Source: Planctomycetota bacterium (lineage in GTDB: Bacteria; Planctomycetota; PLA2; JAEUHO01). Taken from it: 64,000 nt of DNA. The DNA lies in the NCBI GenBank assembly GCA_965223505.1, contig CBDCWP010000004.1, positions 15,309 through 79,308 on the forward strand. Direction: 5' to 3'. The position numbers were made by a program, and so were the translations under genes. This document shows, one piece after another, positions 30,540-52,898 of the stretch; positions within the stretch are counted from its first letter, which is position 1; every line of letters starts with the position of its first letter. Below the pieces are notes generated by a model that was not told the DNA's origin, searched no databases, and saw only the letters and a program-made list of their open reading frames with translations.

Positions 30540-30608
30540 GGGGAGCAGAGTCTGACAGGGGCTGCGGAGGCTGCCGAACATTCCCGGAAGGCGCCGCGCC
30601 TGATCCCG

Positions 30609-32057: not shown

Positions 32058-34186
32058 GGCATCCGGGCTCGCAGGGTGTGAATCTCACCGAACACGGGCC
32101 TGAGATCCGGCGCCAATCCGAGCTGAAGCCGTCTCACCGCGCGCTCGAGGTGTGGCCCGCCGTCGGCGTCGAGCTCGGGCCACCGCAGACGCAGGGTGTT
32201 GATGCCCGATCGCACGGTCGTCGCCGGCGCCAGCACGGTCGCGCGGCTCCATTGCGCACCTGTGGTGATCCGGCCCACCTCCGTGCCGTTCAGCACGAGG
32301 GCCGACGTGCGATCGTCCTCGTCGTCGCGGGGGGCACGGAGCGTGAGCGCGAGCTCCACGGCGCGAGGCTCGACGACCAGAAAGTGGAACGTGGACTCCG
32401 GCGTCAGCGCGCGCTCGTAGGAACGCGACGTCGGATATGCGGCGAACGGCGACCCGCGGAAGTACCCGCGCGCGAGATCCTGCTCGCCGCGCTCGAGTCC
32501 GCGGGCGTCGGCCAGCAGCAGTTCGAGCCGCTCGCCGGCGCCCGGTCGCCGGCGCTCGAGGACGGCGATGACCGCGCGGACCACGGGCACGTCGAGCACG
32601 TCGTAGTCCTGCCAGCGCCAGATCCGCGCCGGCATACGGTACGGCGATTCGAACACGCGTTGCTGCGCCGACGAGAGCAGTGGGGGGGCGCAGGCCGCCT
32701 TTGCCGCGACGTAGTCCGCCAGCACCTCCTCGATGCCTTCCGAGCTGTCGAGTGCCTGCTCGATCCAGTACTCGGTGCCGGCGGCGCCGTCGGTCAGCGG
32801 ACGCTGAATGTGGGCGGTGTGCAGCGCGGCCAACATCGCGCCGCGGGCCTCGACCGTGTCCGCCGGACTCGGCGGCGGCGATGCACTCGCGACCGTTCGC
32901 CAGTCCAGCGCCTGGAAGCGAGCGGGATGGCTGACTGCCAACACCTCGGCCACGACCGCGGCCATCGCGACGTGCATGCCCTCGGGCGTCAGATGACAAT
33001 AGTCGAGGAACAACCTGCGACCGGGCAGCGGCGATGCGGCATGGTCTGCGAACACGGCCGGAAGGTCGACACACAACAGGTCGTGCGCTTGCGCCGCGTC
33101 ACGGATCGCTTGCCGGACCACCGGACTCGCACCGGGCGCCGATGCGCGTCCGAGCCAGCGCGACGCCTCGAGTCCGGCGAGCAGCGCGTCGCGCGCCGCC
33201 TCCGTCCGACCGATGCGAAGCAGTGTCGTACCGAGTGCCTGATGGGACGTGGCGCACGTTCCGTCGTCCAGGGCAAGCATCGCGCGGGCGGCGTTCTCCG
33301 CTGCCGCGAGATCGTCGTTCGCCAGCGCGTCGAGAACCTCTTGCTTGTGCGCGAGCCAGCGGCGATTCCGGTCGCCCGGCAACCACGACGGCGGGAGATC
33401 GTGCTCCCAATCCGTCAGGTTCGTCTCCGGCACGACCAACGCCATCGTGACTCCGGAGCGGTCCGCGATCGCGGCGAGCTCGGCGCACACGGCCTCCGCC
33501 TTCGACTTCAGGTGGTTCGTTGCGAGGCGCTGAAGGCCAGCCGGCCCTTCGGCGTCCAGCGCCGCCGCGTGTTCGTGCAGGAGCTCGAGCGAGAGGACGT
33601 CGGCGAACGCGGGCGCGTCCGGCGCCGCGGCGAGCCAGTTGTTGCCGGCGAACACGACGATCACGTCCGGAAGCAGCTGCAACGCGGTCCGCGAGACCTC
33701 CAGGACGCCCTCGTCCGTCTGATCGACCCGGCACAGGTCGATGACCTCGAACAGGTCCGCGCCCGCCGTTGCGTCCAGCTGGCCCTGCAGCACCTGCGCG
33801 GGCGTCAGATCCGGCGCGTACAAGAACCCCGCCGCCGTCGACTCGCCGACGAGGCAGACCCGAATCGGCAGGAACGCGTCTTTGGGTCGCAGCGTCTTGG
33901 TGAGCGCCCAGTCGTCCTCGAGCTCGAGAGGATCGGGGCGAACGAAGACCAGCTCGCCGTCGACCTCCTGGGGCTCCCAGATCCCGATGGCCTCCGGGCG
34001 GTCGGCGTCCGGATCGTCTTCGTCGGAGTACGGCTCGTCGAGCCCGGCCGGCTCGACGGCGCGCGGGACGCCGACCATGCCGGTCTGTTGCAGCAGACGC
34101 AGCGTGCGCAGTCCTTCCTCCGTTGCCAAGAGCTGCGCGAGCTCTTCGCAGGCGGCCAACGGAGGTTGTCGTCGGTCTCGGGACAT
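32054..34186 (-). CDS. SGNH/GDSL-type hydrolase with TPR-like insert
   Basis: Block I LVGESTAAG, block III VFAGNNW, block V FLDYCH. Helical TPR-like middle region. Start ATG 34186, 8 nt after the carbamoyltransferase stop. Confidence 0.72.
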   Translation of the reverse strand: MSRDRRQPPLAACEELAQLLATEEGLRTLRLLQQTGMVGVPRAVEPAGLDEPYSDEDDPDADRPEAIGIWEPQEVDGELVFVRPDPLELEDDWALTKTLRPKDAFLPIRVCLVGESTAAGFLYAPDLTPAQVLQGQLDATAGADLFEVIDLCRVDQTDEGVLEVSRTALQLLPDVIVVFAGNNWLAAAPDAPAFADVLSLELLHEHAAALDAEGPAGLQRLATNHLKSKAEAVCAELAAIADRSGVTMALVVPETNLTDWEHDLPPSWLPGDRNRRWLAHKQEVLDALANDDLAAAENAARAMLALDDGTCATSHQALGTTLLRIGRTEAARDALLAGLEASRWLGRASAPGASPVVRQAIRDAAQAHDLLCVDLPAVFADHAASPLPGRRLFLDYCHLTPEGMHVAMAAVVAEVLAVSHPARFQALDWRTVASASPPPSPADTVEARGAMLAALHTAHIQRPLTDGAAGTEYWIEQALDSSEGIEEVLADYVAAKAACAPPLLSSAQQRVFESPYRMPARIWRWQDYDVLDVPVVRAVIAVLERRRPGAGERLELLLADARGLERGEQDLARGYFRGSPFAAYPTSRSYERALTPESTFHFLVVEPRAVELALTLRAPRDDEDDRTSALVLNGTEVGRITTGAQWSRATVLAPATTVRSGINTLRLRWPELDADGGPHLERAVRRLQLGLAPDLRPVFGEIHTLRARMP

Positions 34187-34194
34187 GTCGCTCG

Positions 34195-35958
34195 TCAAAT
34201 GAAGGTGTAGACCGTCTCGCTGATTCGCCCGCGGCGGTCGGAAGCCCGTAGCCGGCGATGGTATTCCAGTGTGTGTGTCCACGACGAGGGCAGCATCTCC
34301 CGGTCGATGACGAAGTCCTCTAGGACCAGCGCGTCCAGGCGTGCGTCGACGGCGCACAGCAGGGCTTCGGCCGGCGTGCGCACGATCGGCTCGCCGCGGA
34401 CGTTGAACGACGTGTTCACCAACACGGGGCAGCCCGTCAGTTCTTCGAACGCCGAAAGCAGCGCGGCGAACCTGGGCGCGACCGATGGATCCACCGTCTG
34501 GGGGCGCGCCGATCCGTCGACGTGCGTGATCGCCGGCAGGTCGAGCTTCGAGTCGACCCGGCACGTCTCCAACATGAACGGAGACGGGTGATCGAGCGCG
34601 AAGTGTTCGGCGGTGCGATCGGCGAGCACCGCCGGCGCGAACGGCCGGAACCCCTCCCGTTTCTTGATCCGCTCGTTCAGGCGGCTCTGCATCTGCGGGT
34701 CGCGTGGGTCCGCGAGGATGCAGCGCGCGCCGAGCGCGCGGGGGCCGAACTCCATTCGGCCCTGGAACCAACCTACGACCTGTCCGGCCGCGAGTCGTCG
34801 CGCGACGTCGGCGACGAGCTGTCCTTCGTCGTGCCGGAACGCGGCTGCCTCGATCCCGACGCCCTCCAGCAGCCGCGCGACGTCGTCGCGCGCGAACGAC
34901 GGACCGAGGCAGACGTCCTCCAGTCGCCGAGTGTCCGGTCGATGCCCCGTGAGTCGCACATGCGCCAGCGCGGCGGCGCCGAGCGCGCCGCCCGCATCGC
35001 CCGCGGCCGGCTGGACGAACACGTTGCCGAACGGGCCCTCCCGCGCGATGCGACCGTTTGCGACGCAGTTGAGCGCCACGCCGCCGGCCATGCAGAGGTT
35101 GTCCGAGGCGACGAGCCCGGCGAGACGGGAGACGGCGTCGAGCAGGATGTCTTCGAGCACGACCTGCAGACTGCGAGCGATGTCCTTGTGTCGTTGGCGC
35201 AGTGGCTCGTCGGGCCGTCGTGCCGGCCCGCCGAGCAGGTCGCAGAGCGCGTCGGTGTACATGCGATCTGCGCGACGAAATTCGAAGTACGAGAGGTCGA
35301 GCGCGTAGTGTCCGGCGCCGTCCGGCGTGCTCAGCGCGCGAATCGCATCGACGCAGGTCGGTCGCCCGTAGGGAGCGAGTCCCATCACCTTGTACTCGCC
35401 ACTGTTGACAGCGAACCCGAGGTATCCGGTGATCGTGCTGTACAGCAGGCCCAGCGAGTGGGGGAAACGCACCTCGTCGAGCAACTCGATCTCGGCGCCC
35501 TGAGCGCGTCCGTAGGTCGTCGTCGCCCACTCGCCGACGCCGTCGACCGTCAGCACCGCCGCGTCGTCGAACCCGGAGAAGAAGTACGCGCTCGCCGCGT
35601 GCGACATGTGATGCTCGAAGGACTCGATCCGTCCCTCGTGGCCGAGGAGCTCGCGAATGTCCCGTTCCGGCCGTCCCGGGTCGATCCAGCGAAGATCCTG
35701 CGCTCCGCCGAGCGGACAGCCTGCCCAAATCTGTCTAGCCAGCTTGAGCGGCGGCGACTCGTAGTATGCGACACAGTCCACGTCGTCGATGTCGATCGCC
35801 CCCTCGTCCAGGCAGAATCGGAATGCATCCACGGGAAGCCGCCCGTCGTGCTTGATGCGCGAGAAGCGCTCCTGGGCGGCGGCGGCGACGAGCACGCCGT
35901 CCGAGATCAGGCAGCATGCGGACTCGTGGAAGTACATGGAGAGACCGATGATGTTCAC
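34195..35958 (-). CDS. carbamoyltransferase (NodU/CmcH/TobZ family)
   Basis: HESA, ERFSRIKH, EHHMSHAASA, DGVGE, EYKVMGLAPYG, AGGVALNC, EFGPRALG, KKREGFRPFAP, HVDGSARPQ, NTSFN. GTG start overlaps the upstream stop. Confidence 0.95.
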   Translation of the reverse strand: MNIIGLSMYFHESACCLISDGVLVAAAAQERFSRIKHDGRLPVDAFRFCLDEGAIDIDDVDCVAYYESPPLKLARQIWAGCPLGGAQDLRWIDPGRPERDIRELLGHEGRIESFEHHMSHAASAYFFSGFDDAAVLTVDGVGEWATTTYGRAQGAEIELLDEVRFPHSLGLLYSTITGYLGFAVNSGEYKVMGLAPYGRPTCVDAIRALSTPDGAGHYALDLSYFEFRRADRMYTDALCDLLGGPARRPDEPLRQRHKDIARSLQVVLEDILLDAVSRLAGLVASDNLCMAGGVALNCVANGRIAREGPFGNVFVQPAAGDAGGALGAAALAHVRLTGHRPDTRRLEDVCLGPSFARDDVARLLEGVGIEAAAFRHDEGQLVADVARRLAAGQVVGWFQGRMEFGPRALGARCILADPRDPQMQSRLNERIKKREGFRPFAPAVLADRTAEHFALDHPSPFMLETCRVDSKLDLPAITHVDGSARPQTVDPSVAPRFAALLSAFEELTGCPVLVNTSFNVRGEPIVRTPAEALLCAVDARLDALVLEDFVIDREMLPSSWTHTLEYHRRLRASDRRGRISETVYTFI

Positions 35959-37419: not shown

Positions 37420-38625
37420 TCAAAGCGCCTTCCGATAGCGCTCGGCGAAACGCTCGGGGAACCGATGCGGGTGGATGTGTGCTTCCAAGGCGCTCGCGAG
37501 CTCGAATGTGAACCGTGGATGCGCGACGGAGGTGCTCTGCGAGCCGGTCCGCGTCAGCGTCTCCGGCAGGATCTCGGCACGCAACGTCATCAACAAGTCC
37601 GTTGCCCAGCACTCGAAAACGGCGACGTAGTCGTCGATCGTTCGACTGTCGTGAAGCAGCCGGAACGCGCATGCGTGCGGCGCGTACTCGAACACGTGCC
37701 CTTCGCGATCCGTACTTCGCAAGAAGAGTGCAACCGTTGGACGCTTGCCCGGATGCTCCTGGGGCGAGAGCGAGTAGAGCTCGCGAAACAAACGCTTGCC
37801 GTACAGGTGTCTTGCCAATGTGTTCAGCTCAGCGCGAAGCTCCGCGATCTCTCCGTCCGAGAGCGCGCCGCGTCCGCACAGCGGACCGTTCTCCAGCGTG
37901 TCTTCGATGGGTTCCCGGGCGTCCACATAGGCGTCATCGCTCTCGTGTTCGACGACCGTTCCACGGCGGACGCCGAAGCGCTGCCCCGGAGCCCACGCGC
38001 GCACGTCGTCTTGCGGCAGGAGCTGCGCGAGAACGCCGGCTTGTGCCTGCGCGCCCGTCGCCGGTCCATCGGCGATCAACAGGCCCGCCGGGCGTGCCCA
38101 CTGCCGGCTCATGCGCCGGTGCGCCCCGGCCAGCGCCAGGATGCCTTCATGCGCCGGCGCCGGGTACACCACCAACCCGGGGACGTCGAGTGCGGCGCTC
38201 GCCGCCGCGCACTCCACGGATGAGGGCGCTCCGTCGATCGGCATGAAGAGACTGCCCTCCGCGTCGGCGTCGCGAACGACGCACCCGAGCGCACCCCACG
38301 CTCGGCCGGCGTCGGCGATGTCCGCCACCGTGTCGACGCGCAGCGTTCCGATGTCCAGCGTCTCTCCACCGTGCACACGCTGCGTCGCGAAGCCCAGCTC
38401 CTCGATGACGACGACCATTGCGGTGGACGCATGCGCGGACACGTAGATCGGGACGCTGCGATCCAGCCCCGCGAGCGACGTAGGATCGAACGCTCGTTCG
38501 CGTGGCAGAAACACGGCGTCAGGCGCGTGTCCGCGGTCCACTCGGAACGCGTCACCGATGATCAGGTGCCCGCGACGCCCGCGCACCGACCAGGTGCGAC
38601 TGCCCAGGTACGTGGCCGTGAACAT
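37420..38625 (-). CDS. degenerate MBL-fold paralogue 3 (no metal-binding motif)
   Basis: Shares LDRSVPIY, VFECWATDLL and HPHRFPERF..RYR with paralogues 1 and 2. The THEHExH segment is absent. Confidence 0.72.
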   Translation of the reverse strand: MFTATYLGSRTWSVRGRRGHLIIGDAFRVDRGHAPDAVFLPRERAFDPTSLAGLDRSVPIYVSAHASTAMVVVIEELGFATQRVHGGETLDIGTLRVDTVADIADAGRAWGALGCVVRDADAEGSLFMPIDGAPSSVECAAASAALDVPGLVVYPAPAHEGILALAGAHRRMSRQWARPAGLLIADGPATGAQAQAGVLAQLLPQDDVRAWAPGQRFGVRRGTVVEHESDDAYVDAREPIEDTLENGPLCGRGALSDGEIAELRAELNTLARHLYGKRLFRELYSLSPQEHPGKRPTVALFLRSTDREGHVFEYAPHACAFRLLHDSRTIDDYVAVFECWATDLLMTLRAEILPETLTRTGSQSTSVAHPRFTFELASALEAHIHPHRFPERFAERYRKAL

Positions 38626-38655
38626 CGACGCCCCGTCCTTGCCGGCAAGACCTTG

Positions 38656-38898
38656 CTAGGAGGAGACGTTGTCGTTGGTGTTGCCGTTGTTGAGTCGGTT
38701 CTGCACGGCCCACAACGCGTTGACGGCAGGTGTGTTCTTCTGACCGATGGCCCAGAGGGCGTTCAGGGCCGTGTTGGTGCCCCCGATGGCGTTGCTGGCG
38801 CTGGGGTGTCGCATCCCCCCGCGCATCTCCCGCAACTCTTTCTTGGGGATCGTCCGGGTCTTGCCCGTCAACTGGACGCGCCGTGCTCGCTTCTTCAT
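38656..38898 (-). CDS. double-glycine RiPP precursor peptide A (80 aa)
   Basis: RBS GAGAGG. Leader ...IPKKELREMRGG followed by a 52-aa Asn-rich core with NALWA twice. Near a C39 ABC exporter. Confidence 0.8.
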   Translation of the reverse strand: MKKRARRVQLTGKTRTIPKKELREMRGGMRHPSASNAIGGTNTALNALWAIGQKNTPAVNALWAVQNRLNNGNTNDNVSS

Positions 38899-38928
38899 GG
38901 CAACCTCTCAGGTTATCGACCCCTGCGC

Positions 38929-38958
38929 ATCGTAGCACTTCTGCGCGGCGCCATGCAA
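38929..38958 (-). promoter_or_regulatory. candidate sigma-70 promoter for precursor A and tailoring genes
   Basis: TTGCAT-N18-TACGAT with an extended -10 TG, about 30 nt upstream of ATG 38898. Confidence 0.4.
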
Positions 38959-39047
38959 GGCCACCAGCGCATGGCGACCCCCGCCATATGTTCACGATTA
39001 TCGACATCGGCTGTACGGCGCAGATACAAGCCGTATCGACGCCGAAT

Positions 39048-39082
39048 CCGTCCCGCCGGCCACTCGCGGGCCGACGGGACGG
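39048..39082 (-). terminator. 14-bp stem-loop after precursor B
   Basis: Minus strand CCGTCCCGTCGGCC-N7-GGCCGGCGGGACGG (one G-U pair), 12 nt downstream of the TAG at 39095-39097. Confidence 0.55.
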
Positions 39083-39094
39083 TGGTTTGCGCTT

Positions 39095-39300
39095 CTAGAA
39101 AACCTGGTTCGCGAAATGCACCGCGTCCTGCACGCCGTTGCTTGCGGGGTTGATGAAGACGGAGTAGATGTCGCCTTCGGAGGCGGGAAGAGGGCGCTCG
39201 GCCAACCCGAAGTAACCACGGCAACGCCGGCGGCGTTGTCACTGAGGCCCCCGCGGGTCAAACGCATGTCCTTCTTGGAAAGCTGCTTCGTGAAGTCCAT
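39095..39300 (-). CDS. double-glycine RiPP precursor peptide B (apparent 1-nt frameshift; ORF track gives 38998-39309)
   Basis: Leader MDFTKQLSKKDMRLTRGG. Adding one C at the C-run (+ strand GGG 39185-39187) gives the core LSDNAAGVAVVTSGWPSALFPASEGDIYSVFINPASNGVQDAVHFANQVF*, with GC3-rich codons and a downstream hairpin. Confidence 0.62.
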
Positions 39301-39455
39301 CCTCGTCAAGTGGTTTCAACCAGCCGAGCGGGATGCTCGACCGGGGGTGGGAGTCTAGCAGGCCACCGTTGAAGCCCTTTGCGGCGAAGCGTCCGAATCG
39401 AAGACCAAGACGACGTTCACTCTGCGCGACACTCTCCGTTCACTCAGCGCGGCCG

Positions 39456-41747
39456 TCACTTGTTCCTCGGCGGCGTGTTCGCGCGGACCGCTTCGATGAG
39501 GACGTCGCCGGTGGTCTGCAGGCTCGCCCGCGATACCCGCTCCACGCGGTCCTCCGACGTGTGTCGGAATCGATTGCGACCGGCGCGTCGAACGGGATCG
39601 GCGCCGCCGAAGTCGAAGTCGCACAGCAACGCCGCCGGGATGCCGGCGCGAAGAAACGGGATGTGGTCGTTGCGCACGGCGATCGGAATGCTGTGGGCGC
39701 GCGCTATCTCGAAGTAGCGTCCGTAGCCCAACCGTGCTCCGGCGTCGAGCAGCGATGCCGCCACCGACGTCGTGGAGCGTAGATCGTCGGTGAACTGCAG
39801 TCGCTCGTCGCCGACCATGTCGCAGACGACGACCGCGATCAGCCGGTCGACCTCGCCGGCGGCGACGACGTGCTCGACGAATGCGCGGCTGCCGTACAAG
39901 CCGTGGCGCGGACCCGAACGCCCCAGCGCCTCCTTGCCGTCGAAGAACGCGATCCGCACCGCCGGACGGGGCTTCATGGCCGCCAGGACACGCGCGCACT
40001 CGATCAGGACGGCGGCGCCAGAAGCGCCTTCGTTCGCGCCGGTGAAACCCGACACCCCCTCCAGCCGCTTCGTGTCGAGGTGCGTCGCGAGAAGAACGTA
40101 TCGTTCGTCACGCTCGCCTGGCAACGAGGCGAGCGTGTTCTTCAGGACCCGTCCCCCGCCCGGCGTTTGCACTGCGACGTCCTCGATCTCCACTGACCAA
40201 CCCGCGGCCTCGAGCTGCGCGCGCACGTACCCGCGTGCGTTCTCCAGGGCCTCGCTGCCGAGGGGACGCGGACCCAGCTCGGCCAGGGCGACGAGGTCCG
40301 CCATCGAACGATCGGCGTCGAACGGCGTTCGCGCAGCGGGCGCCGGTCGCGGCGAGAGCGGCGGCGGCGCTTCGGTCGGCGTCGTCGGCGTCACCGCGGC
40401 GCCTCCGCTCAGGCCGAACAGGCGACGCACCGGTTCGAAGAGCAAGCTGACGATCCGCGGTCGCTCGGTCACGATCTCCGCGGAGAGCGTCAGCCCTGCG
40501 CGCAGTGCAAGCCCCTCCGGTGCGTCGCCTTGCACACGCTGTACGGCGAGGCGTCCGGTGAACACCGACGCGCCCGTCGTAGGGTCCTCCGTCGGTACCA
40601 GCGCGACACTCTCCAACCGTGCCTTCACGACGCCGAAGCGCTCGAACGGATACGCGTCGAGCTTGATCTTGCAGAGCGCGCCGGGTCGCAGAGCCGCGGC
40701 GTCGCGATTGGCGAACGTCGCGGTCGCCGCCACGTGGGGGGACGTGGAGATCGAAAATGCAGGCGTGTCCGCCTCGACCCGGTCGCCCGGAACGATCGGC
40801 GCCGCGAAGTTGATCAACCCGCTCACCGGCGCATGCAGGACCAGCAGCTCGAGCACGCGCTCGCTCGCGTCGATCTCCGCCTCGAGCTTCTCGATGTCCG
40901 CGCGCGCCGTGTCGCGGGTGGCCCGCGTACGCGCGGCCGCGTCGCGCAGCGCGGCCTGCGCGGATTCCAGTCGGCTCTTCGCGGCGGCGACGCGTTCGTC
41001 GGCTTCGATGGTGATCACGTCGAGCGCCTGACGCGCCTCGCGCAACGCCGCTTTCGCACCCTCGACGAGTCCGCGCTGCGCGTCACGCTTGGCGATCGCC
41101 GCGTCGTGCGTCTCGCCGTCGATCAGCTTCTTCTTGTACAACGTCGTCGCGCGCTCGGCCGCCTTGTCGTCCCTACGAAGGGTGGCTTCGGCGGCGGTCA
41201 GCGCCGCCTGCTTGGCCTCGAGGCGTGCGCGCTCGAGCTCCACCCGGCGCGGAATGACCGTCTCGCGATGACGCAGCTCTCGCGTGTGCGCGTCGCGCGC
41301 TGCGCGCCAGTCTTCGATCGTCTCGGCGGCGGCGACGTCGGCGACGGCCTTCGCTTCGCCCGACGCCAGGAGGGCCGCCAGCGCGGTGACGGTCTCGTCG
41401 AGGGTCGTCCACTGCCGGTGCGCGCGACCGTGGTCCTTGCGCAGCCGCTCCAGACGCCCGCGTTCGGCTGCGTCTTCCAACCGCAGGAGCAGCTGTCCGG
41501 CTCGCACCTGCTCGCCTTCGGCCGCGTAGACCTCCGCGACGACGCCGGCGGTCGAGAGCCGTACGTCCGTGCGCTCGTCCACGGCGACGAGCAGCCCGCG
41601 GCCGACGACGACCCGATCGACGCGCACGACCGTCACGAACGTTCCGACCGCGCCCAGCAGGAGGAGCAACAGCCACAACAGCAGCCGACGCCCGCGCGCG
41701 CCGACCGCGGGCTTGGCGGGACGGGGCAGGATGGCGCCGCCGCTCAT
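39456..41747 (-). CDS. HlyD-family adaptor fused to an M28 peptidase/glutaminyl-cyclase-like domain
   Basis: TM helix, GEQVRAGQLLLRL, coiled coil, APVSG, KLDAYPFERFG, LRAGLTLSAEI. Then a Pro/Thr linker, then THLDTK, GANEGASG, FFDGKE, LYGSR, DMVGD, NDHIPF, RHT. Confidence 0.85.
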   Translation of the reverse strand: MSGGAILPRPAKPAVGARGRRLLLWLLLLLLGAVGTFVTVVRVDRVVVGRGLLVAVDERTDVRLSTAGVVAEVYAAEGEQVRAGQLLLRLEDAAERGRLERLRKDHGRAHRQWTTLDETVTALAALLASGEAKAVADVAAAETIEDWRAARDAHTRELRHRETVIPRRVELERARLEAKQAALTAAEATLRRDDKAAERATTLYKKKLIDGETHDAAIAKRDAQRGLVEGAKAALREARQALDVITIEADERVAAAKSRLESAQAALRDAAARTRATRDTARADIEKLEAEIDASERVLELLVLHAPVSGLINFAAPIVPGDRVEADTPAFSISTSPHVAATATFANRDAAALRPGALCKIKLDAYPFERFGVVKARLESVALVPTEDPTTGASVFTGRLAVQRVQGDAPEGLALRAGLTLSAEIVTERPRIVSLLFEPVRRLFGLSGGAAVTPTTPTEAPPPLSPRPAPAARTPFDADRSMADLVALAELGPRPLGSEALENARGYVRAQLEAAGWSVEIEDVAVQTPGGGRVLKNTLASLPGERDERYVLLATHLDTKRLEGVSGFTGANEGASGAAVLIECARVLAAMKPRPAVRIAFFDGKEALGRSGPRHGLYGSRAFVEHVVAAGEVDRLIAVVVCDMVGDERLQFTDDLRSTTSVAASLLDAGARLGYGRYFEIARAHSIPIAVRNDHIPFLRAGIPAALLCDFDFGGADPVRRAGRNRFRHTSEDRVERVSRASLQTTGDVLIEAVRANTPPRNK

Positions 41748-44700
41748 CCCACCTGCTCCGCGTGGAACATGGCATACAAGCCGCCTTGCTCGAGGAGGGC
41801 GGCGTGGGTGCCTTGCTCGGCGACGCGGCCCCGTTCGAGCACCACGATGCGATCCGCCCGCCGCGCGTACCCGAGGCGGTGCGCGAGGAACACCACGGTG
41901 CGGTCGCGGCTGGTCTCGTCCAACGCGTTCAAGAGCGCGGCCTCGCTTTCCATGTCGAGCGAGCTCGTCGGCTCGTCGAGCAGCAGGAGTCTCGGCTGCC
42001 CCACGAGCGCGCGCGCGATCGCGAGACGTTGGAGCTCACCGCCGGAGAACCGTGCCGTGCTCCGCTCGCCGACGAGCGTACCGTAACCCTGCGGGCGATT
42101 GATGATCTGGTCGTGGATCCCCGCAGCCTGCGCAGCGGCGATGATGTCCGCTGCTGCGAGCTCGCGGCCGACCGCGATGTTCTCCATGATCGTTCCGGAA
42201 AGCAGCTCGATCTTCTGCGGAACGAATCCGACCTGGCGGCGCAGCGATCGCGCCGAGACGTTGCGCAGGTCGTGACGATCGACGTAGACCGAACCCTTCT
42301 CGGGTTGAAAGAGCTTCAGCAGCAGATGAACGAATGTGGTCTTGCCCGCGCCGCTGCGTCCGACGATCGCGACGCGTTCGCCGGGCAGGACCTCGAGCGA
42401 GAGATCTTCGAAGACCGGCGGTAGGTCCCGTTCGTAGCGAAACGTGACATTCTCCAGGCGAATGTGGCCTTCCACGGAGCCGATGTCGAGCAACGACTCC
42501 GTCTGCGGTTCCTCCGGCGAAGCGTCGAACACCTGGCTGAGCCGCTCGAGCGAGACCGCCGTCTCCTGAAAGCTCTCCCAGATCCCCAGCAAGCGCGTCG
42601 CGGGCGCGAGCACCTGGGCTAGCACGGCCGAGAAAGCGACGTACGCACCGACGCTGAGCGAACCGTCGATCACGAACCGTGCGCCGAAGTAGATGACCGC
42701 GGCTTGGCCGCACGCGCCAATGAACGTGCCGAGCGTCTGCGACAACGTCACGAGGCGCACCCCGCGCAGCTCCGAGGCGAGCATCCGGTGGAAGAGACGC
42801 TCGTATCGGCGCCGTTCCGCATGTTCCGCGTTCGCGCCCTTGACCGTGACGACCGACGAGAGCGAGTCGACGAGGGCGGACTGGGTCTCGCCCTGGCGGG
42901 TCACCTGCTCTCGGCGGATGCGACGCAGGCGCGGTGTGATGAACCACGTGAGCAGTGCCAACAGCGGAATCGGAAACAGTCCGATGATTGCGAGCTCGAC
43001 GTCGTAGCACAGGAGCACGATCAGGTACACGGCCCCCAACGCGACGTCCAGGATGGCGCCCGTCGCGACGGTCGTGAGGAAGTGACGGACCTTCTCGTTG
43101 TCCGCGAACCGCACGAGCAGGTCGCCGACCTTGCGCGACGCGAAGAACTGCAGCGGCAGGCGAAAGAGCTTGTGGTGGAAATCGCTCACCAGCGCCAGGT
43201 CGGCCGCACGCACGACGTCGTAGAGCAGCAGCGTGCGCAGCGCGCCGATCAGCGCGGAGAAGAGCGCGGCGCCGATCATCGCGGCCAACAACGCGATCAG
43301 GATCGACACCTCGCCGTGGACGAACACCCGATCGATGACGGTCTGTGTCGTGAAGGGGATGACGAGACCAAGCAGCTGCAATGTGAAGGCGGCCAGCAGC
43401 ACCTGGAAGATGACGCCGCGGTGGGGCCGCAGGTAGGGCAGAAAGCGCGAGAGCCCCTTCGGTCGTCCGCCCGCGTCTTCGGGCGGCGCGGAGGTGGGCC
43501 GCAACAACAGCAAGGTGCCGTCCCACCCTTCCATGAACGCCTTGAGCGGTATGCGCTTGAGCCCCTGCATCGGGTCTGCCACGACGACACGTCGTCGCGA
43601 GACGGCGTACAAGACGACGAAATGATTGCCGCCGACGTGCGCGATGGCGGGCAGCCGCACGTTGCGCAGGTCGTCCGCCCCTTCGACGCCGACGCCGCGG
43701 GCGAGGAAGCCGATGTCCTCGGCGGCTTCGGCCAGCGACAGGAGGGAACAGCCTTGCTGCGAGACGCACGCGAGCTCGCGCAGCCGCCCGTGCAACGCCG
43801 GCCGTCCGTAGAAGTCCGCGATCATGCCCAGGCAGGCCGGACCGCAGTCGGTCGCGTCCGGTTGGAGCCGCAAGGGGTACCTGTGCAACGCCCGTCGCAG
43901 TGCGCGTCCGACGAGCGTGCCCGGCGGTTCCAGCAGACGGGGATCGAGCGCCTCTTCGAGCTCCTCCTCGACGGTTTCATGCGACGCGCTGCGTGTCGGC
44001 GTGCGGCGTCCGCGGTGCGACAGGGCGGCCACGAGGGTCGCGAAGAACGGCCGCAGGGCCCGCGCCTCTTCGTCGGACGCGGCAAGCACGAGCCGCCGCC
44101 CCGGCGACAGCGCCACGATGTCGGCCGGCTCCGGCGTGTCGAGCGCCATGCCGGCTTCGCCGAAGGTGTCGCCGCTCACCAGCATGCGCGGCGAGTCGTG
44201 CGCGTCCCCGGCCTCGCGGCGAGCGCGTCCTTCGACAAGGAGCGAGAAGCCGTCGGCGCGCTCGCCCTGGCGGGCCAACACGTCGCCGGCGGCGAACGCC
44301 TGGGGTGCGAGCGCGAGGACGACGTTGCGGACGATCTCGGCGTCGACGGACGTCGCGTCGAGATCGTCCAAGAAGGCACGCAGCGCCGGCTCCCCGAGCG
44401 CGGCCGTCAACGGTCGAAGCGACGGGTCGTTGTCGAGCACGCTTCGATCGAGGCGCAACACGGTCATCGCCGTCTCGACGTGCACGGCATCGCCGCCCGG
44501 CGCCTCGCCGAAGAGCTGTCCCCGGAACGCGACGCCGCCTTGTCCGACGGGCGCGTCGCCGCCCTCGGATCTCCCCATCCCGTCGAGCACGAGTAGGGCG
44601 CCCTTGGACGGCGGGATCACGGCGCCGCGTTTGAAGCGTGCGCGCTCGCCGTGCGCCGCGAGTTCCGTGCAGGCGTTGCGTCCGAGCACCCGCAGCACGG

Positions 44701-44752
44701 CGTCGGCGAGTAGCAACCGGGCTGTTCGCCGGAGTTCGGGGTCGTCCTGCAC
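41744..44752 (-). CDS. peptidase-containing ABC transporter (cNMP-binding-like, C39, TMD, NBD)
   Basis: Q..ATDCGPACL, NHFVVL, VADP (C39 triad intact). GRSGAGKTT, FSGGELQR, LLLDEPTSSLD. N-terminal cNMP-like segment GDVLARQGE..GDTFGE. Confidence 0.92.
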   Translation of the reverse strand: MQDDPELRRTARLLLADAVLRVLGRNACTELAAHGERARFKRGAVIPPSKGALLVLDGMGRSEGGDAPVGQGGVAFRGQLFGEAPGGDAVHVETAMTVLRLDRSVLDNDPSLRPLTAALGEPALRAFLDDLDATSVDAEIVRNVVLALAPQAFAAGDVLARQGERADGFSLLVEGRARREAGDAHDSPRMLVSGDTFGEAGMALDTPEPADIVALSPGRRLVLAASDEEARALRPFFATLVAALSHRGRRTPTRSASHETVEEELEEALDPRLLEPPGTLVGRALRRALHRYPLRLQPDATDCGPACLGMIADFYGRPALHGRLRELACVSQQGCSLLSLAEAAEDIGFLARGVGVEGADDLRNVRLPAIAHVGGNHFVVLYAVSRRRVVVADPMQGLKRIPLKAFMEGWDGTLLLLRPTSAPPEDAGGRPKGLSRFLPYLRPHRGVIFQVLLAAFTLQLLGLVIPFTTQTVIDRVFVHGEVSILIALLAAMIGAALFSALIGALRTLLLYDVVRAADLALVSDFHHKLFRLPLQFFASRKVGDLLVRFADNEKVRHFLTTVATGAILDVALGAVYLIVLLCYDVELAIIGLFPIPLLALLTWFITPRLRRIRREQVTRQGETQSALVDSLSSVVTVKGANAEHAERRRYERLFHRMLASELRGVRLVTLSQTLGTFIGACGQAAVIYFGARFVIDGSLSVGAYVAFSAVLAQVLAPATRLLGIWESFQETAVSLERLSQVFDASPEEPQTESLLDIGSVEGHIRLENVTFRYERDLPPVFEDLSLEVLPGERVAIVGRSGAGKTTFVHLLLKLFQPEKGSVYVDRHDLRNVSARSLRRQVGFVPQKIELLSGTIMENIAVGRELAAADIIAAAQAAGIHDQIINRPQGYGTLVGERSTARFSGGELQRLAIARALVGQPRLLLLDEPTSSLDMESEAALLNALDETSRDRTVVFLAHRLGYARRADRIVVLERGRVAEQGTHAALLEQGGLYAMFHAEQVG

Positions 44753-44844
44753 GCGCCGGATTCTACGGGAACGCGTCGTGGGATCGGGCGGCCTGGCAAA
44801 CCCGGCCGTCTGTCAAATGCCGAACACGCCGAGCGATCCGACCG

Positions 44845-46194
44845 CTACTCGCCCGCTTCGTCGGCTTCGGCCAACCCGTATCGAAGCAGCTTGCGGTACA
44901 GCGTCTTGCGATCGACGCCCAGGATCGCCGCCGCGCGCCGGCGAACACCGCCGACGCTCTTCAGCACCGACAAGATGTGCGCGCGCTCGACCGCTTCCAG
45001 CGTCTGCAGCGAACCCGGCGCCGCGTCCGACTTGCGCTCGTTCCCGTGGCGAATGACCGAAGGCAGCTCGTCCACGTCGATGCGCGGACCGCGCGCGAGC
45101 GCCACGGCGCGCTCGATCACGTGCGCCAGCTCCCGGACGTTGCCGGGCCACGGATACGAGTGCAGCGCGGCGAGGGCGTTGTCCGTGATCTTCGCCGCCT
45201 TGCCGGCCGTGGCGAATCGGCGTAGGAAGTGGCCGACGAGCAACGGAATGTCCTCGACGCGATCGCGCAACGGCGGAACGCGGATCGTCACCGCGTTCAA
45301 GCGATACAGGAGATCCTCGCGGAAGCTCCCGTCCCGAACGGCCGTATCGAGGTCGCAGTTCGTGGCCGCGAGCACACGCACGTCCACGTGGCGCACCGAC
45401 GACGACCCCACGCGCCGCACCTCGTTGGACTCGAGCACGCGCAGCAGCTTCGCCTGCACGGCTAGGGGCATGTCCCCGATCTCGTCGAGCAGGATCGTGC
45501 CCTTGTCCGCGGCTTCGAAGAGACCGGGACGGTCCGCGTTCGCGCCGGTGAACGCGCCGCGCACGTGGCCGAACAGTTCGCTCTCCAGCAGTCCCTCCGG
45601 CAACGAGGGACAGTTCACGGCGACGTACGGACCGCTCGAGCGCGGGCCCGCGTCGTGGATCGCGCGCGCAACCAGTTCCTTGCCGGTGCCGGTCTCGCCT
45701 TGCACGAGCACGGACACCGTCAGGGGTGCGACGCGCGCGATCGACTTGAACACCCGCGTCATGGCCTCCGAGCGGCCGACCATCGCGCGCTTCGCTTCGC
45801 CGCGCTCCATCGACGCCTCGCCCGCCTCGCCGCGCGCCTCGGCGGCGCGCTTCACCATGCGGCAGATCTCGTCCATGGAGAACGGCTTGCTCATGTAGTC
45901 GAACGCGCCGGCGTGAATCGCCTCGACGGCCGTCTCCAGCGACCCGAACGCGGTGACGACGATCGCTTGCAGCTTCGGATCCCGCTCGCGCAGCGTGCGC
46001 ATGAGCTCGATGCCGTCCATGCCCTCGAGCCTTACGTCCGTGACGACGACGTCCACCGTCTCGCCGTTCATCGCCTCCAACGCGGACTCCGCGCTGTCGG
46101 CCGCGCTCACGTCGTAGCCTTCGCCTCGCAGGACCTCGACGAGGAGGTTGCGCGCAACCGCGTCGTCTTCCACGATCAACACGCTCGTGCCCAT
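44845..46194 (-). CDS. sigma-54-dependent response regulator (NtrC/AtoC family)
   Basis: REC domain (VEDD, TDV, KPF), GETGTGKE, ESELFGH, GAFTGA, WPGNVREL, Fis-type HTH. Confidence 0.93.
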   Translation of the reverse strand: MGTSVLIVEDDAVARNLLVEVLRGEGYDVSAADSAESALEAMNGETVDVVVTDVRLEGMDGIELMRTLRERDPKLQAIVVTAFGSLETAVEAIHAGAFDYMSKPFSMDEICRMVKRAAEARGEAGEASMERGEAKRAMVGRSEAMTRVFKSIARVAPLTVSVLVQGETGTGKELVARAIHDAGPRSSGPYVAVNCPSLPEGLLESELFGHVRGAFTGANADRPGLFEAADKGTILLDEIGDMPLAVQAKLLRVLESNEVRRVGSSSVRHVDVRVLAATNCDLDTAVRDGSFREDLLYRLNAVTIRVPPLRDRVEDIPLLVGHFLRRFATAGKAAKITDNALAALHSYPWPGNVRELAHVIERAVALARGPRIDVDELPSVIRHGNERKSDAAPGSLQTLEAVERAHILSVLKSVGGVRRRAAAILGVDRKTLYRKLLRYGLAEADEAGE

Positions 46195-46195
46195 C

Positions 46196-46999
46196 TCAGC
46201 GCTCCTCGCCCAGCGGCTCGATGGTGAGCGTGACCACGGTGCCGATGCCCGGCTTGGAGTCCAGAAGGATGTCGCCACCGTGCGCCTTCGCGATCTCCCG
46301 GCAGATGGCGAGACCGAGGCCGGATCCGCGGCCCGCCCCCTTGGTCGAGAAGAAGGGCTCGAAGACGTGGTCCATGTGCCGCGACGAGACCCCGTGCCCG
46401 GAGTCGCAGACGGAGATGGCGCGGCCGGCGCCGGTGGCGTCGGTTCGAATGACGAGCGTGCCGCCCTTGGGCATCGCGTCGATCGCGTTTTGAACGAGAT
46501 TGAGGAAGACCTGTTCGAGCTGATCGCGGTCGCACGCGATCGGCGCTTCCGACCCGGCGCCGATGTCGAGTTCGAGTTGAATCTCGTTCTTGGTCAGCAG
46601 AGGTTCGAGAACGTCGAGGACGTGCACGAGCAGGGCGTGAATGTCGGTCGGCGTCGGCTCGGGCTCGGGGCCTCGCAGTCGGCGCAGGTAGCGCCGAATG
46701 AGCAGCGAGAGGCGAGAGACCTGGTCCGCGATGATCTCGGTGCGGCGGCGCGCGTCGTCCGGAAGCGCCGGGTCCGCGAGCATGAGGTCGAGATGTCCGG
46801 AGATGGAGTGCAGAGGCGTGCCGAGCTCGTGCGCGAGACGGCCGACCAACGCGCCGAGTGCGGCGACCCGCTGCGCTTGCGCGAGCTTGCGCTGCATGTC
46901 GAGCAGGGTCGGCGACGTCGCGTCCTGCGTGGGCTCGGACGGCGGCGTCTGCGTGGCGCGCTCTTCGCTCTGACGCGCATCCGCGTTCATACGTGACAC
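46196..46999 (-). CDS. sensor histidine kinase lacking an obvious input domain
   Basis: AHELGTPL, QVFLNLVQNAIDAM, DSGHG, FEPFFSTK, GSGLGL. No TM helix. Start uncertain. Confidence 0.88.
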   Translation of the reverse strand: MSRMNADARQSEERATQTPPSEPTQDATSPTLLDMQRKLAQAQRVAALGALVGRLAHELGTPLHSISGHLDLMLADPALPDDARRRTEIIADQVSRLSLLIRRYLRRLRGPEPEPTPTDIHALLVHVLDVLEPLLTKNEIQLELDIGAGSEAPIACDRDQLEQVFLNLVQNAIDAMPKGGTLVIRTDATGAGRAISVCDSGHGVSSRHMDHVFEPFFSTKGAGRGSGLGLAICREIAKAHGGDILLDSKPGIGTVVTLTIEPLGEER

Positions 47000-47852: not shown

Positions 47853-48112
47853 GGGTCGAAAACTCCGAAGATCGCCGCTGCCAAGCACGCAGCGGGCCAA
47901 CTGCGGCGAGGTGCCGAATTCCGCCTCCGAGGCGCCCCCGACCGACCCGGCGGGGCATTTTGCCCCTCGCGTGGGGCAGTTGGCCCCAGCGCCGCGCCCG
48001 ATGTGCGCGTCCGCGGGCGTCTTCTTCCGGCGCAGCGAGGCCGGCGCGGACCTCGCGTCGCGTGGCACGCACGTTGCGAAGCGGTGGATCGATCCTTTCA
48101 CAGGAGGTTCCC

Positions 48113-48319
48113 ATGTTCGACATGAGCAGTAGCACCGACGACAGCACCGAATGTTCGGTCTGCGGCGAGCTCGTTCCCCACAGCCACACCGTCCTGCGAT
48201 CCGGCATCGGCCGCATGTGCTGGTTCTGCCACACGGACGAAAGCATGGATCCCGACGTCCTCGACGGCGAGGACTTCGACGACTACGACGACTACGACGA
48301 TTGGGAAGACTGGGCCTGA
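48113..48319 (+). CDS. small CxxC...CxxC protein with acidic tail (68 aa)
   Basis: RBS AGGAGG. CSVC...CWFC, tail DGEDFDDYDDYDDWEDWA. Confidence 0.65.
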   Translation: MFDMSSSTDDSTECSVCGELVPHSHTVLRSGIGRMCWFCHTDESMDPDVLDGEDFDDYDDYDDWEDWA

Positions 48320-48430
48320 CGCCCGGCGACCCGTCGTTGCTCCCTCTGTTTCGTTCTTTTTGTTTCTCTCTCTCCAACTTCCCTCCCCCTCCAAACGAGA
48401 ACGCCTCATAACGAAGAAAGCGAAGGCACG

Positions 48431-48466
48431 AACGCACCCCGTCTCTCGGCGGGGTGCGTTTTTCTT
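48431..48466 (+). terminator. intrinsic terminator
   Basis: AACGCACCCCG-N8-CGGGGTGCGTT followed by TTTCTT. Confidence 0.7.
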
Positions 48467-48615
48467 CGGGAGTATGTACTTAGCGCACGGGCGGCCAGGA
48501 CGCCGCAGAAATGGGCCTCGGAAGGCCACGCCACCTCGGCGACGCACGCATTCATCAACGGGACTGGGTAGTTGGCGAAAACCGACCAGCCTCGGACCGA
48601 CCAGCGCCGGGCGGC

Positions 48616-49624
48616 CTAGCTCCAGATTACGTCCACGTCAGGTCCGGGAAGGGCGATCCCGTGGCGAAAGTACGCCCAGAATCTGCCACCATGGATAGTG
48701 CCGAAGACGCGGTTTTCGATCTTCCGATATGGCACTCCATCTCGGAAACGAGCATCTCGATTCCAGAGTATCAGATTGCAAATCGCCGTCCCTGCGATCG
48801 CCCGCTCGAAGTTACGCAGGCCAGCCGCAAACTCCGAGTCGTCATAGCGTAGGAGCCGAACCTCACCGCCGGGAGGTCCCGGCTTCCCGGGCACCGGCAG
48901 GTGAGCGACCGTAAGTCGGTAGATCCGAGATGCTCACCAAGTCGAAGATTGGCGAGCAGTCAACGAGCAGCACGCCGTTTTCGAATTCCGTTGACCGAAG
49001 CTGCCTCCTCTTCGCCTCGACAACCTCGACCAGCTTGGACCAGAACTCCGCGACGGTCCGTTGCTTGACTATCTGTGGGTACCGACTCGTAGCCTCACAC
49101 GGGTAAGCGAGTCCGTCTCGTTTGGCGAGGAAGTCTGGTCGGCCCCCCGAAGTGGACGGATCGGCAACAAATTCAATCTCAAAGCCTTCCCGGGCGAGGT
49201 AACCCGCAACGAGGAACATGAAGCCTTGGCCGCGCAGGTTGGGATCATCGGCATCGTCATCCTTCCGATAGCCAACATTCGAGAGTTGCTTGAACTCGTA
49301 GCGAAAGCCGACCGAGTTCGTGTACGGGCGAAGGTGCCAGAGGCTGAACCCGATCGTGCCGAGTGCATCGACGTCGCGGACCAAGCGCACTTGTTCGGGG
49401 TCCTCCGGGCGCCACTCAGGACTGCCGTCGTCGGCCGACTCTATGCGCCGCAGGTTGATTCCGCCGACCATGCGGATGCGATCCGCCAGCCTGCTGTTCG
49501 GGCGGCGACGTTCCAGTTCCTCATAGAGGTAGTTCACCCCCGCAAACAAGACGCTCCAGCAGAGTTGCGGGTGGCGCCAGTTGGCGACGTCGTTCATGAT
49601 CTCAAAGGGGACCTTCTCAGTCAC
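48616..49624 (-). pseudogene. frameshifted gene with a PD-(D/E)XK nuclease-like motif
   Basis: RPDFLAKRDGLAYPCEATSR. The coding frame appears to switch near 48900 into ORF 48616-48894. Confidence 0.45.
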
Positions 49625-49642
49625 GCAAGTGCTCCGGTATCA

Positions 49643-50619
49643 CTACTCGTCGCACCGGATCACCCAATCTTTTCCGTCGCGAATTGGCCGGACGACGAAT
49701 CCATCGAATACTCGGCCCCCGACTTGGTGAGGCTCGTCCTCGTAGTAGACGGTCGCGCCGATGCACGGCTGAATAGGGCGCCGCTCGTTCGAAGCTAGGA
49801 GCACCTGCCACCACGTGCTGTTCTCCTCATTGGCGAACAGCCTGAGGCAGACCATGACCTGATTCTCCTCGGACTTGCCGATCCCGAAGACGTGCTTGGG
49901 GCGAGTCGGGCACTCATCCCGCAGAGGACCAAGCGGGCTCTGCGTCGGGTTGTCGGGGTTGGCGGACAGCGGTCCCCACGGTCGGCCGTCACCAAGAATG
50001 AAGCTCCGCACATCCTCAAACTCGTCTTCGTGCCCTTGCGACCGGTAGATCGCCAGAAAGACGTGGAACGCGACCATCACGATCGCACGTCTCTGGACCT
50101 CGGTGACCTCGTACTTTCGTGCGGAGTCGAAGACCTGCCCCTCATGCATCGGGTCCCGCTCTTCGATCTTGGCCTTCGGGTACAGCTTGCGCAGAAGCTC
50201 GGGAAGGACATCCCCCGTACCAGAAGGTCTTCATGACCTTGCCCTTGTGGCCCGCTCGCTCAATCGCCTCCGCCAGGGCATCTGCCGTCTGAATGTACTC
50301 GGGGACATGCCACGGCGTCGTAGAGCCATCGGCTTCCGTGAAAACCAGTTGTCGGGCTGCACGGCCCGTGCGTCCACCGAGGTCCCGATCCACGAGCATC
50401 GGTCCTTCCACGCCCTCTACCTCAGCGAGCGCCATCTCATAACCCGCCCCTTGTGGACGATTCTTCTTCGGTGGCCGCCCGAGCTTCCAAGGGACCGCAC
50501 GCCGGGCCTGGCTGTAGAAGCCCTTCTGAAGGAGCGGCGTGATCAGTTCATTGCCGAGCCGGATGTTGCAGTCGTGGCATAGGAGCCCCCGCTTGGGTAG
50601 GAATGGCGCGGGGAATCTC
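49643..50619 (-). pseudogene. HNH-like endonuclease, 5'-truncated by IS and frameshifted
   Basis: LLCHDCNIRLG directly after the IS end. A G5 run (50212-50216) shifts the frame into DVLPELLRKLYPK...MHEGQ...RRAIVMVAF...FEDVRSFI. Confidence 0.55.
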
Positions 50620-52016: not shown

Positions 52017-52075
52017 CGGGCAGTCCGATATGGATATCGACTACAGAAGAAGAGGAAGACTGGAAGTAGTACGAC

Positions 52076-52327
52076 TCAACGCAGGTCGTCAGCAGTGCCT
52101 GCGAGCCCATCGGCCCCGATACTGAACAATTCGAACGACTTGACACCCAATGTTCGGTACACGAAGGACTGCCCCCATGGGTCCGCGGGCACGGTGAGCA
52201 TCAACTGTGGCCTTGTCGTTCTTAGCTCGTCAAGAGTGATCGGTAACCGATCATGGAGTTCAACAAAGCGCCTAACGAAGTGTTCGAGTTCGCCGATGAG
52301 GCCGTACGCGGTGGTGATTTCATCCAT
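52076..52327 (-). CDS. type II secretion protein G-like C-terminal domain (probable fragment)
   Basis: DPWGQSFVY, FELFSIGADGLAGTADDL. No prepilin leader. Confidence 0.55.
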   Translation of the reverse strand: MDEITTAYGLIGELEHFVRRFVELHDRLPITLDELRTTRPQLMLTVPADPWGQSFVYRTLGVKSFELFSIGADGLAGTADDLR

Positions 52328-52835: not shown

Positions 52836-52898
52836 TAGGTAGATGCCTTGTCGCTTTCGGTCACGCCGCTCTTGTCCTTCGGAGGCAACGGTGAGCCG

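Follow-up and report, generated by a model that had tools for sequence, protein, structure and literature searches.

A HlyD-type export adaptor with a tethered glutaminyl-cyclase-like domain, probably a pseudoenzyme, in a Planctomycetota peptide-export cluster

The adaptors of tripartite exporters are usually seen as passive connectors, and HlyD-type secretion is regarded as bypassing the periplasm. Bacterial type II glutaminyl cyclases (QCs) are known from several solved structures. The enzyme of Porphyromonas gingivalis (PgQC) is a periplasmic lipoprotein that is anchored in the inner membrane and acts on N termini exposed by signal peptidase (PMC10653852). Here we describe a gene in which these two kinds of protein are joined. 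It is located on the minus strand at positions 39456..41747 of a 64,000-nucleotide stretch of a Planctomycetota genome (contig CBDCWP010000004.1, positions 15,309 to 79,308; the whole stretch is referred to as the window) and encodes a HlyD-type adaptor, a linker, and a QC-like domain of the M28 family with substituted catalytic positions. Each half belongs to a known family, and the novelty is an export adaptor with a tethered, cyclase-derived domain that is probably a pseudoenzyme. We consider it reasonably probable that this domain is non-catalytic, descends from an active export-coupled cyclase, and has a role linked to export. Judged from its residues, it is very likely neither a cyclase nor an aminopeptidase.

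The adaptor half shares with type I HlyD proteins (TIGR01843, 8dck) the N-terminal anchor, the lipoyl-like motif, the long helical region, and the β-barrel region. As in those systems, its gene lies directly behind the gene of its ATP-binding cassette (ABC) partner and overlaps it. In contrast to the solved and textbook HlyD proteins, it carries 320 extra residues (linker plus M28 domain) and scores below the subfamily cut-off, and its ABC partner has a predicted active C39 protease and a cyclic-nucleotide-binding (cNMP-binding) domain. The bacteriocin export sets of the NHLP/Nif11 type follow the same logic, with precursors carrying double-glycine (GG) leaders, a C39-ABC exporter, and a HlyD adaptor. 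The exporter matched TIGR03796 with an E value of 3.7e-146 and 488 bits (equivalog cut-off 853) and TIGR03797 with 7.7e-111 and 372 bits (cut-off 709), and the adaptor matched TIGR03794 with 7.9e-13 and 48 bits (equivalog cut-off 156). However, in our locus one ABC protein joins what those sets split in two, and no meaningful match to any NCBIfam model was obtained for the precursor open reading frames (ORFs).

The M28 half has the same fold, over the whole domain, as the bacterial type II QCs (7d18; PgQC, 6qql and 7cjg; Bacteroides thetaiotaomicron, 7d1d and 7d1e) and retains the equivalents of Asp248, His140, and Glu202. Human QC numbers are used here for the bacterial motifs; we take this correspondence to hold from motif alignments and from our general understanding of the family. 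Compared with the type II QCs, Glu201 is replaced by Lys, Asp305 by Asn, Asp159 by Glu, and the Trp preceding His330 by Arg. A clade-specific Arg-rich insertion is present, and the peptide cores of the cluster do not start with Gln. Compared with PgQC, the compartment and the membrane-proximal tethering would be the same, but a HlyD adaptor takes the place of the lipid anchor. Domains of the M28 fold that were kept for binding or scaffolding after loss of catalysis occur in eukaryotes, namely the protease-like domain of the transferrin receptor and the Gaa1 subunit of the glycosylphosphatidylinositol transamidase. The principle would be the same in an unrelated context, the likeness being drawn to these proteins as they are generally described.

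In the literature on HlyD and other membrane-fusion proteins, M28 proteins, glutaminyl cyclases, bacteriocin leaders, and pseudoenzymes, no description of such a fusion was found. The terms "M28," "glutaminyl," and "aminopeptidase" do not occur in the available part of a review of tripartite pumps (PMC8277102).

Architecture and fold of the fusion protein

The gene is a single ORF from ATG to stop, encoding 763 amino acids with no internal stop. A preliminary description, made from the letters of the window alone, had outlined a complete HlyD, an in-frame Pro/Thr linker, and an M28 domain of approximately 290 amino acids without giving the strand, and had asked whether the combination of HlyD with Peptidase_M28 occurs elsewhere. 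The architecture, defined by the Pfam families HlyD_3/HlyD_D23 and Peptidase_M28, was found in seven further clusters, and all three parts were recovered in the analyses below.

The HlyD-type membrane-fusion part comprises residues 1–444 (40416..41747, minus strand). Within residues 62–401, the Pfam models HlyD_3 (48.7 bits, cut-off 22.2) and HlyD_D23 (38.5 bits, cut-off 30) matched above their cut-offs, and a subthreshold match to Biotin_lipoyl_2 indicated a weak lipoyl-like motif. The NCBIfam model for type I HlyD, TIGR01843, aligned nearly end to end (residues 19–441 with model positions 3–412 of 422, E value 9.5e-40). Its score of 136.8 bits was below the curated cut-off of 208.65, and by this measure the adaptor part is a divergent member of the broad HlyD family outside the curated subfamily. 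In the solved HlyB-HlyD complex, residues 245–468 of the 478-residue HlyD chain (8dck_C) aligned to residues 214–441. Because this match reaches so close to the end of the solved chain, the M28 domain is appended past the normal HlyD C terminus. From both alignments it follows that the adaptor is complete and that everything after about residue 444 is extra.

The translation contains one candidate membrane anchor, a hydrophobic segment at about residues 21–41 (RLLLWLLLLLLGAVGTFVTVV; 41625..41687, minus strand). By analogy with the HlyD family and with the matched 8dck chain, the rest of the protein after this segment would be periplasmic, in agreement with the location proposed for the M28 domain at the outset. 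The linker (residues 445–473; 40329..40415, minus strand) is rich in Pro, Thr, and Ala, reads GLSGGAAVTPTTPTEAPPPLSPRPAPAARTP in frame with the HlyD part and the M28 part, and stands out by its low identity between conserved flanks.

The QC-like M28 domain comprises residues 474–756 (283 amino acids; 39480..40328, minus strand), as delimited by structure prediction, Foldseek, VIA-align, and phmmer. Peptidase_M28 (PF04389) matched residues 537–753 with 96.2 bits (cut-off 21.3). An AlphaFold2 model of residues 470–763, built with an alignment of 97 rows, had a mean predicted local distance difference test (pLDDT) value of 93.8 and a predicted template modeling (pTM) score of 0.93. In Foldseek the top match of the modeled domain was 7d18 ("Acidobacteriales bacterium glutaminyl cyclase") with a template modeling (TM) score of 0.89 and 29% identity. 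With VIA-align, the model superposed on this bacterial type II QC with a Z score of 40.9 and a root mean square deviation of 2.1 over 281 of 293 residues, so that the superposition on QC proposed in the preliminary description gave a close fit for the predicted structure. Z scores were 37–38 for the cyclases of Porphyromonas, Bacteroides, and Tannerella and 32–33 for animal cyclases and di-zinc aminopeptidases. The Pfam score and the fold, with Z scores of 32–41 to M28 and QC structures, place the domain in the M28 family. The sequence gave the same best match: a phmmer search of residues 440–763 against solved structures gave 7d18_A as the best match (E value 4.9e-30), followed by insect, tick, human, and bacterial glutaminyl cyclases.

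Catalytic positions in the fused lineage

The motifs of the M28 domain are GANEGASG, FFDGKEA, RNDHIPF, and RHT. Their counterparts in 7d18 are GANDGGS, DDGEEA, EDDHLPF, and HHT, and the family consensus is GANDGGSS, FFDGEEA, DDHxPF, and WHT. The human QC residues His140, Asp159, Glu201, Glu202, Asp248, Asp305, Trp329, and His330 thus correspond to H556, E573, K605, E606, D643, N693, R728, and H729. The three substitutions noted at first sight, D159 to E, E201 to K, and D305 to N, are real in the alignment to 7d18, as is the retained C-terminal His of RHT. Among 138 nonfused representatives, for which rows with gaps and the four distant aminopeptidase-like rows P0006–P0009 had been left out, Asp is present in 128 at the position of E573 (codon GAA, 40029..40031, minus strand), Glu in 124 at the position of K605 (AAG, 39933..39935, minus strand), Asp in 122 at the position of N693 (AAC, 39669..39671, minus strand), and Trp in 127 at the position of R728. 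H729, at the position of the zinc ligand His330 in the alignment to 7d18, is encoded at 39561..39563 (minus strand). A single nucleotide separates each of the codons GAA, AAG, and AAC from a codon for Asp or Glu.

According to the available part of one study, human QC binds zinc through Asp159, Glu202, and His330, whereas His140, Asp159, and Asp248 form a conserved but unoccupied second site (Zn2) (PMC11312887). In the available text of another, the hydrogen-bond network of the active site involves Ser160, Glu201, Asp248, Asp305, and His319, and the substrate is contacted by Glu201 and Asp248 (PMC10435661). Crystal structures of the QC mutants E201D/L/Q, D248A/Q, and D305A/E exist, as seen from titles among the structure matches. 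In 2008, Huang et al. are said to have found QC mutants at E201, D248, and D305 strongly impaired.

In our protein the positions of the zinc ligands (Zn1) are E573, E606, and H729, with metal-binding chemistry kept and Asp exchanged for Glu. Judged against an active type II glutaminyl cyclase, the protein retains Asp248 (as D643) but has Lys at the Glu201 position (K605) and Asn at the Asp305 position (N693). A co-catalytic M28 aminopeptidase would presumably use the equivalents of H556, E573 (for Asp), E606, D643, and H729, all present, together with a catalytic Glu that is Lys605 here; this assumed correspondence is consistent with the roles reported for QC (PMC11312887). A trimming aminopeptidase was also considered and was rejected because the catalytic Glu is replaced by Lys.

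Relatives were collected in two ways: the M28 part served as query against 5.8 billion proteins in a word-indexed search, and 1.84 billion representatives were searched exhaustively with HMMER. The former yielded four fused relatives, P0002–P0005, at 70–72% identity. The latter added three remoter ones, P0011, P0012, and P0013, at 49–50% identity, for which the combination of HlyD with M28 was confirmed by Pfam. When the HlyD part alone was used as query in the word-indexed search, all six proteins found at E values of 1e-10 or below also carried M28. There are thus eight fused clusters including our protein, three of which are N-terminally truncated.

At the eight sites listed above, our protein, P0002, P0003, and P0005 read H E K E D N R H, and P0004 reads H E K E D N R Q. 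In the remoter clusters the residues are H D H E D H R F (P0011), H D A E D A W R (P0012), and H E K D D A L R (P0013). The His140 and Asp248 equivalents are kept in all eight clusters. In contrast, the Glu201 position is replaced in all eight (six times by Lys, once each by His and Ala), and so is the Asp305 position (five times by Asn, then Ala, His, and Ala). The zinc ligand His330 is retained in four clusters and lost in the other four (Q, F, R, and R). In each fused lineage, one or more of the positions 201, 329, and 330 have become basic. The three substitutions that had been proposed as a rewired active site are therefore invariant in the close group (five of five, relatives at 63–73% overall identity), but P0011–P0013 carry differing residues, and no new catalytic set is conserved over the eight fused clusters.

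Among the nonfused representatives, 113 of 138 are canonical at six catalytic and metal sites and 25 deviate, so that degenerate QC-like proteins are not uncommon. One of the deviating proteins, the standalone P0042, has Lys at the Glu201 position and Asn at the Asp305 position and is sister to the canonical P0017 (support 100/98), so that the Lys/Asn pair arose at least twice. The same cyclase-like domain was also seen on other partners in P0056, P0070, P0080, P0158, P0159, and P0160, mostly with canonical residues. The partners in these six are a PMT_2 glycosyltransferase-like membrane domain, an ICMT/PEMT methyltransferase, DUF456, RNase III with dsrm, and citrate synthase, and some of them may be gene-call fusions.

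Identity to our protein among the fused homologues was 48–72% in the M28 domain, 39–77% in the HlyD part, and 13–50% in the linker. From the comparison of the first two ranges, the M28 domain is under purifying selection about as strong as that on the adaptor. Across nine sequences 64 columns are invariant. The Arg-rich insertion (DFDFGGxDPxRRxxRN), which precedes the His330 motif and is specific to the clade, has R721, R724, and N725 invariant in nine of nine. A maximum likelihood tree was built from 57 domain sequences, which were those of the top-60 hits with a length of 240 residues or more together with three aminopeptidases as outgroup. In this tree the eight fused proteins and P0010 formed one clade, with an ultrafast bootstrap value of 100 and an SH-aLRT value of 99. 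At its base the branching order of P0010, P0012, and the remainder was not settled by the tree. The residues of P0010 are canonical throughout, and its terminal branch is the shortest (0.39, compared with 0.77 for P0012, 0.86 for P0011, and 1.23 for P0013). Because it also has the Arg-rich insertion, the insertion goes with the clade and not with the loss of catalysis. P0010 comprises 297 amino acids, starts with V inside the aligned linker region, lacks a signal peptide, and is encoded on a contig of 2522 bp; it is probably a truncated gene call. A search for a longer form with P0010 as query revealed no closer fused form.

A non-catalytic role and its alternatives

The simplest reading of the residue pattern is that the clade descends from an active cyclase, that catalysis was then abandoned, and that the catalytic positions drifted or were compensated in charge, with the fold and most of the residues invariant in the family retained. 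The pattern of conservation indicates that the fold, the residues of the Zn2-site type (H556 and D643), and the Arg-rich loop stay under selection. Since the domain is retained under selection, appears unable to cyclise, and is accompanied by cores without Gln, binding or scaffolding is indicated. The role would most probably be non-catalytic, either in holding the exported peptide or a partner in the export machine or as a structural collar.

Several observations weigh against this interpretation. The Zn1 positions E573, E606, and H729 keep metal-binding chemistry in four of the five close members, and K605 is invariant in all five and is also Lys in P0013, so that a metal site and some activity could persist in this sub-lineage. 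Among the nonfused representatives, 4 of 138 (P0042, P0073, P0094, and P0148) carry the exchange of Glu201 for Lys, and P0154, left out of that count for a gap column, has Lys at this position as well. The recurrence could mean a recurrent alternative function instead of mutational ease (GAG to AAG). The canonical P0010 may itself come from a protein fused to HlyD. In strictly one-step export, with HlyD and TolC forming a sealed duct, the cargo would stay out of reach of a periplasmic domain.

The alternative that survives best is altered chemistry, in which a Glu-Glu-His metal site with Lys605 in place of Glu201 would catalyze another reaction on the N terminus released by GG cleavage or on another periplasmic substrate. 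All of the residues that such a site could use (E573, E606, H729, H556, and D643) are present, the Glu/Lys/Asn set is invariant in the close group despite about 30% divergence, other QC-like proteins also have Lys at the Glu201 position, and the domain is under clear purifying selection. However, P0004 has Gln at the His330 position, and P0011, P0012, and P0013 carry His, Ala, and Lys at position 201 and Phe, Arg, and Arg at position 330; there is therefore no common catalytic set across the fused clade. The three changes are each a single-nucleotide step from a canonical codon, and the Trp that the family has before His330 is Arg in our protein. To our knowledge, no chemistry has been described for an M28 site of this Lys/Glu-Glu-His composition. 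We regard altered chemistry as unlikely, and the residue pattern favors non-catalytic binding over it.

A functionless remnant, in which an ancestral fusion with an active cyclase no longer has a task and its domain is being lost through drift, is much less plausible still. It would account for the variation of the catalytic positions among lineages and for the terminal branches of the noncanonical members, which are 2–3 times longer than that of the canonical P0010. The domain is intact, however, without stops or deletions in eight clusters, it is conserved as well as the HlyD part or better in most comparisons, 64 alignment columns are invariant, and the AlphaFold2 model is confident throughout. 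What drift looks like in this protein is seen in the unconstrained linker. The preliminary description had taken canonical homologues as a possible sign that this copy is simply decaying; a canonical homologue exists in P0010, but the conservation of the M28 domain at the level of the HlyD part speaks against decay.

That an error of sequencing or assembly within the linker fused adjacent hlyD and standalone M28 genes is next to inconceivable, even though the window comes from a metagenome-assembled genome of 44 contigs and public contig depth is only about 5: in-frame fusions are found in independent metagenomes (P0004, P0005, P0012, and P0013), the X2 and X3 contigs show no difference over the parts of the stretch that they span, and the M28 part is preceded by no signal peptide or lipobox, unlike the standalone homologues.

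Export cluster, distribution, and significance

Upstream of the adaptor gene lies the gene of the partner exporter (41744..44752, minus strand; 1002 amino acids), whose stop overlaps the ATG of the HlyD-M28 gene by 4 nucleotides. By Pfam, a 150-residue N-terminal region without a match is followed by the cNMP-binding domain, a C39 peptidase, and the membrane and ATPase domains of an ABC exporter. In an alignment with PCAT1 (4ry2), the Cys of DCG, the His of HFVV, and the Asp of ADP are intact, and from this triad the protease is predicted to be active. No other C39 domain is encoded in the 5.15-Mb genome. With the intact triad and two GG-leader ORFs directly downstream, the set has the features of a peptidase-containing ABC transporter.

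Both ORFs are putative precursors on the minus strand, and their leader motif was found at these two places only in the 5.15-Mb genome. Precursor A (39095..39300) has the GG leader ...KKDMRLTRGG, read from the ATG at 39300 to 39247. From about 39235 the frame with a high GC content at third codon positions (GC3) switches, and a peptide-like, codon-biased reading ends at the stop 39095–39097 in another frame. The sequence was identical in an X3 contig (39139–39354) from a second sample; precursor A is thus either a genuine gene with a frameshift or a site of recoding, and no one-off assembly error. Precursor B (38656..38898; 80 amino acids) has the leader ...KKELREMRGG, a core starting with MRHPSAS, and a GC3 of 0.9 in frame. 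The residue after GG is Leu in precursor A and Met in precursor B. Neither putative core thus offers the N-terminal Gln or Glu that a cyclase would use, which agrees with the initial remark that neither core starts with Gln. The domain could, however, have substrates other than these two cores.

Six TolC-like frames of the OEP family are encoded elsewhere in the genome. Directly upstream of the exporter on the same strand are genes for a sigma-54 response regulator (44845–46278, minus strand) and a histidine kinase (46196–46999, minus strand). The sigma-54 promoter consensus, taken here as it is commonly given, had 4 matches compared with 3.47 expected, and none was located upstream of the operon. 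No sigma-70 promoter or terminator was found in a scan of 38400–39600, and no Rfam match was found in 38400–45200. Downstream of the precursors are three proteins, two of them with a metallo-β-lactamase fold by Pfam, and beyond these follow a carbamoyltransferase, a 712-amino acid protein, TldD, and PmbA. The 1224-amino acid ORF at 32054–35728 (minus strand) is largely spurious, the carbamoyltransferase (Carbam_trans_N and Carbam_trans_C) being encoded in another frame from 34195 to about 35950. For the 712-amino acid product of 32057–34192 (minus strand), there was only a weak GDSL-lipase match of 26 bits, below the cut-off. The cluster is followed, with no change of strand, by the TldD/PmbA metalloprotease pair (27769–30581, minus strand) and an RtcB ligase gene (26419–27693, minus strand).

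Although genuine, the fusion is rare. Neither the 39 other species genomes of its class (here identical to the order) nor 400 other genomes sampled from the phylum yielded one. A standalone cyclase-like gene (E value of 1e-30 or below) was present in 12 of these 400, one of which (L002) has canonical motifs and a lipoprotein-like N terminus. A metagenome-assembled genome with a member of the P0002 cluster is labeled Planctomycetota by NCBI. In locus scans of metagenome and genome contigs, with 80 loci listed in each, all matches were to the M28 part only (query residue 424 or later, identity at most 43%), and a tblastn search of the HlyD part over 180 stored loci gave one match, the window itself. 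Public contigs from three runs and two samples of one study were identical wherever they covered the stretch, with no indels reported, although the X1 contig may be the source assembly. The X2 contig (39831–40440) spans the linker and is identical there, and the homologues are fused in frame, so the stop or frameshift in the linker that would have undermined the first reading did not appear in these sequences. Because the same architecture recurs in independent metagenomes, the fusion is not an assembly artefact. Just upstream of the cluster (48000–58000), the GC content falls from about 0.68–0.71 to about 0.62–0.64, and a Mutator-family transposase gene is located in this low-GC region (50660–51901, minus strand). 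The GC drop, the transposase, and the failure to find the fusion in the 39 genomes of the class are hints of horizontal acquisition.

In the mechanism that we propose, the C39 domain would cut the leader after GG, and the ABC part would pump the core. The HlyD part, anchored by one N-terminal helix, would oligomerize around the ABC dimer and reach a TolC-like outer-membrane channel encoded elsewhere, by analogy with the solved HlyD. Each copy of the adaptor would carry a single cyclase-like domain close to the inner membrane on its periplasmic side, tethered by about 30 residues. The ancestral domain, placed in this way, may have cyclised the Gln exposed by the C39 cut; the present-day domain would no longer cyclise and would bind or scaffold.

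A more far-reaching idea, which we hold to be doubtful, is that the tethered domain is a working periplasmic station, either a receptor for the cut N terminus or another part of the peptide or an enzyme of the Lys605/Glu-Glu-His type. If this were true, its purposes could be hand-over, quality control, or protection of the producer, and HlyD-type cargo would be exposed to the periplasm, contrary to the picture of one-step type I secretion. The presence of a tethered, selected domain in at least eight diverged lineages suggests that maturation was once coupled to export, with Gln cyclisation after the C39 cut, or, alternatively, that periplasmic handling of the cargo or of a partner continues today. 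The fusion would represent a clean natural case of an enzyme turning into a pseudoenzyme, and P0010, as a possibly canonical comparison, makes the transition testable. In practical terms, the domain is a marker of a small family of peptide-export clusters that is still unstudied.

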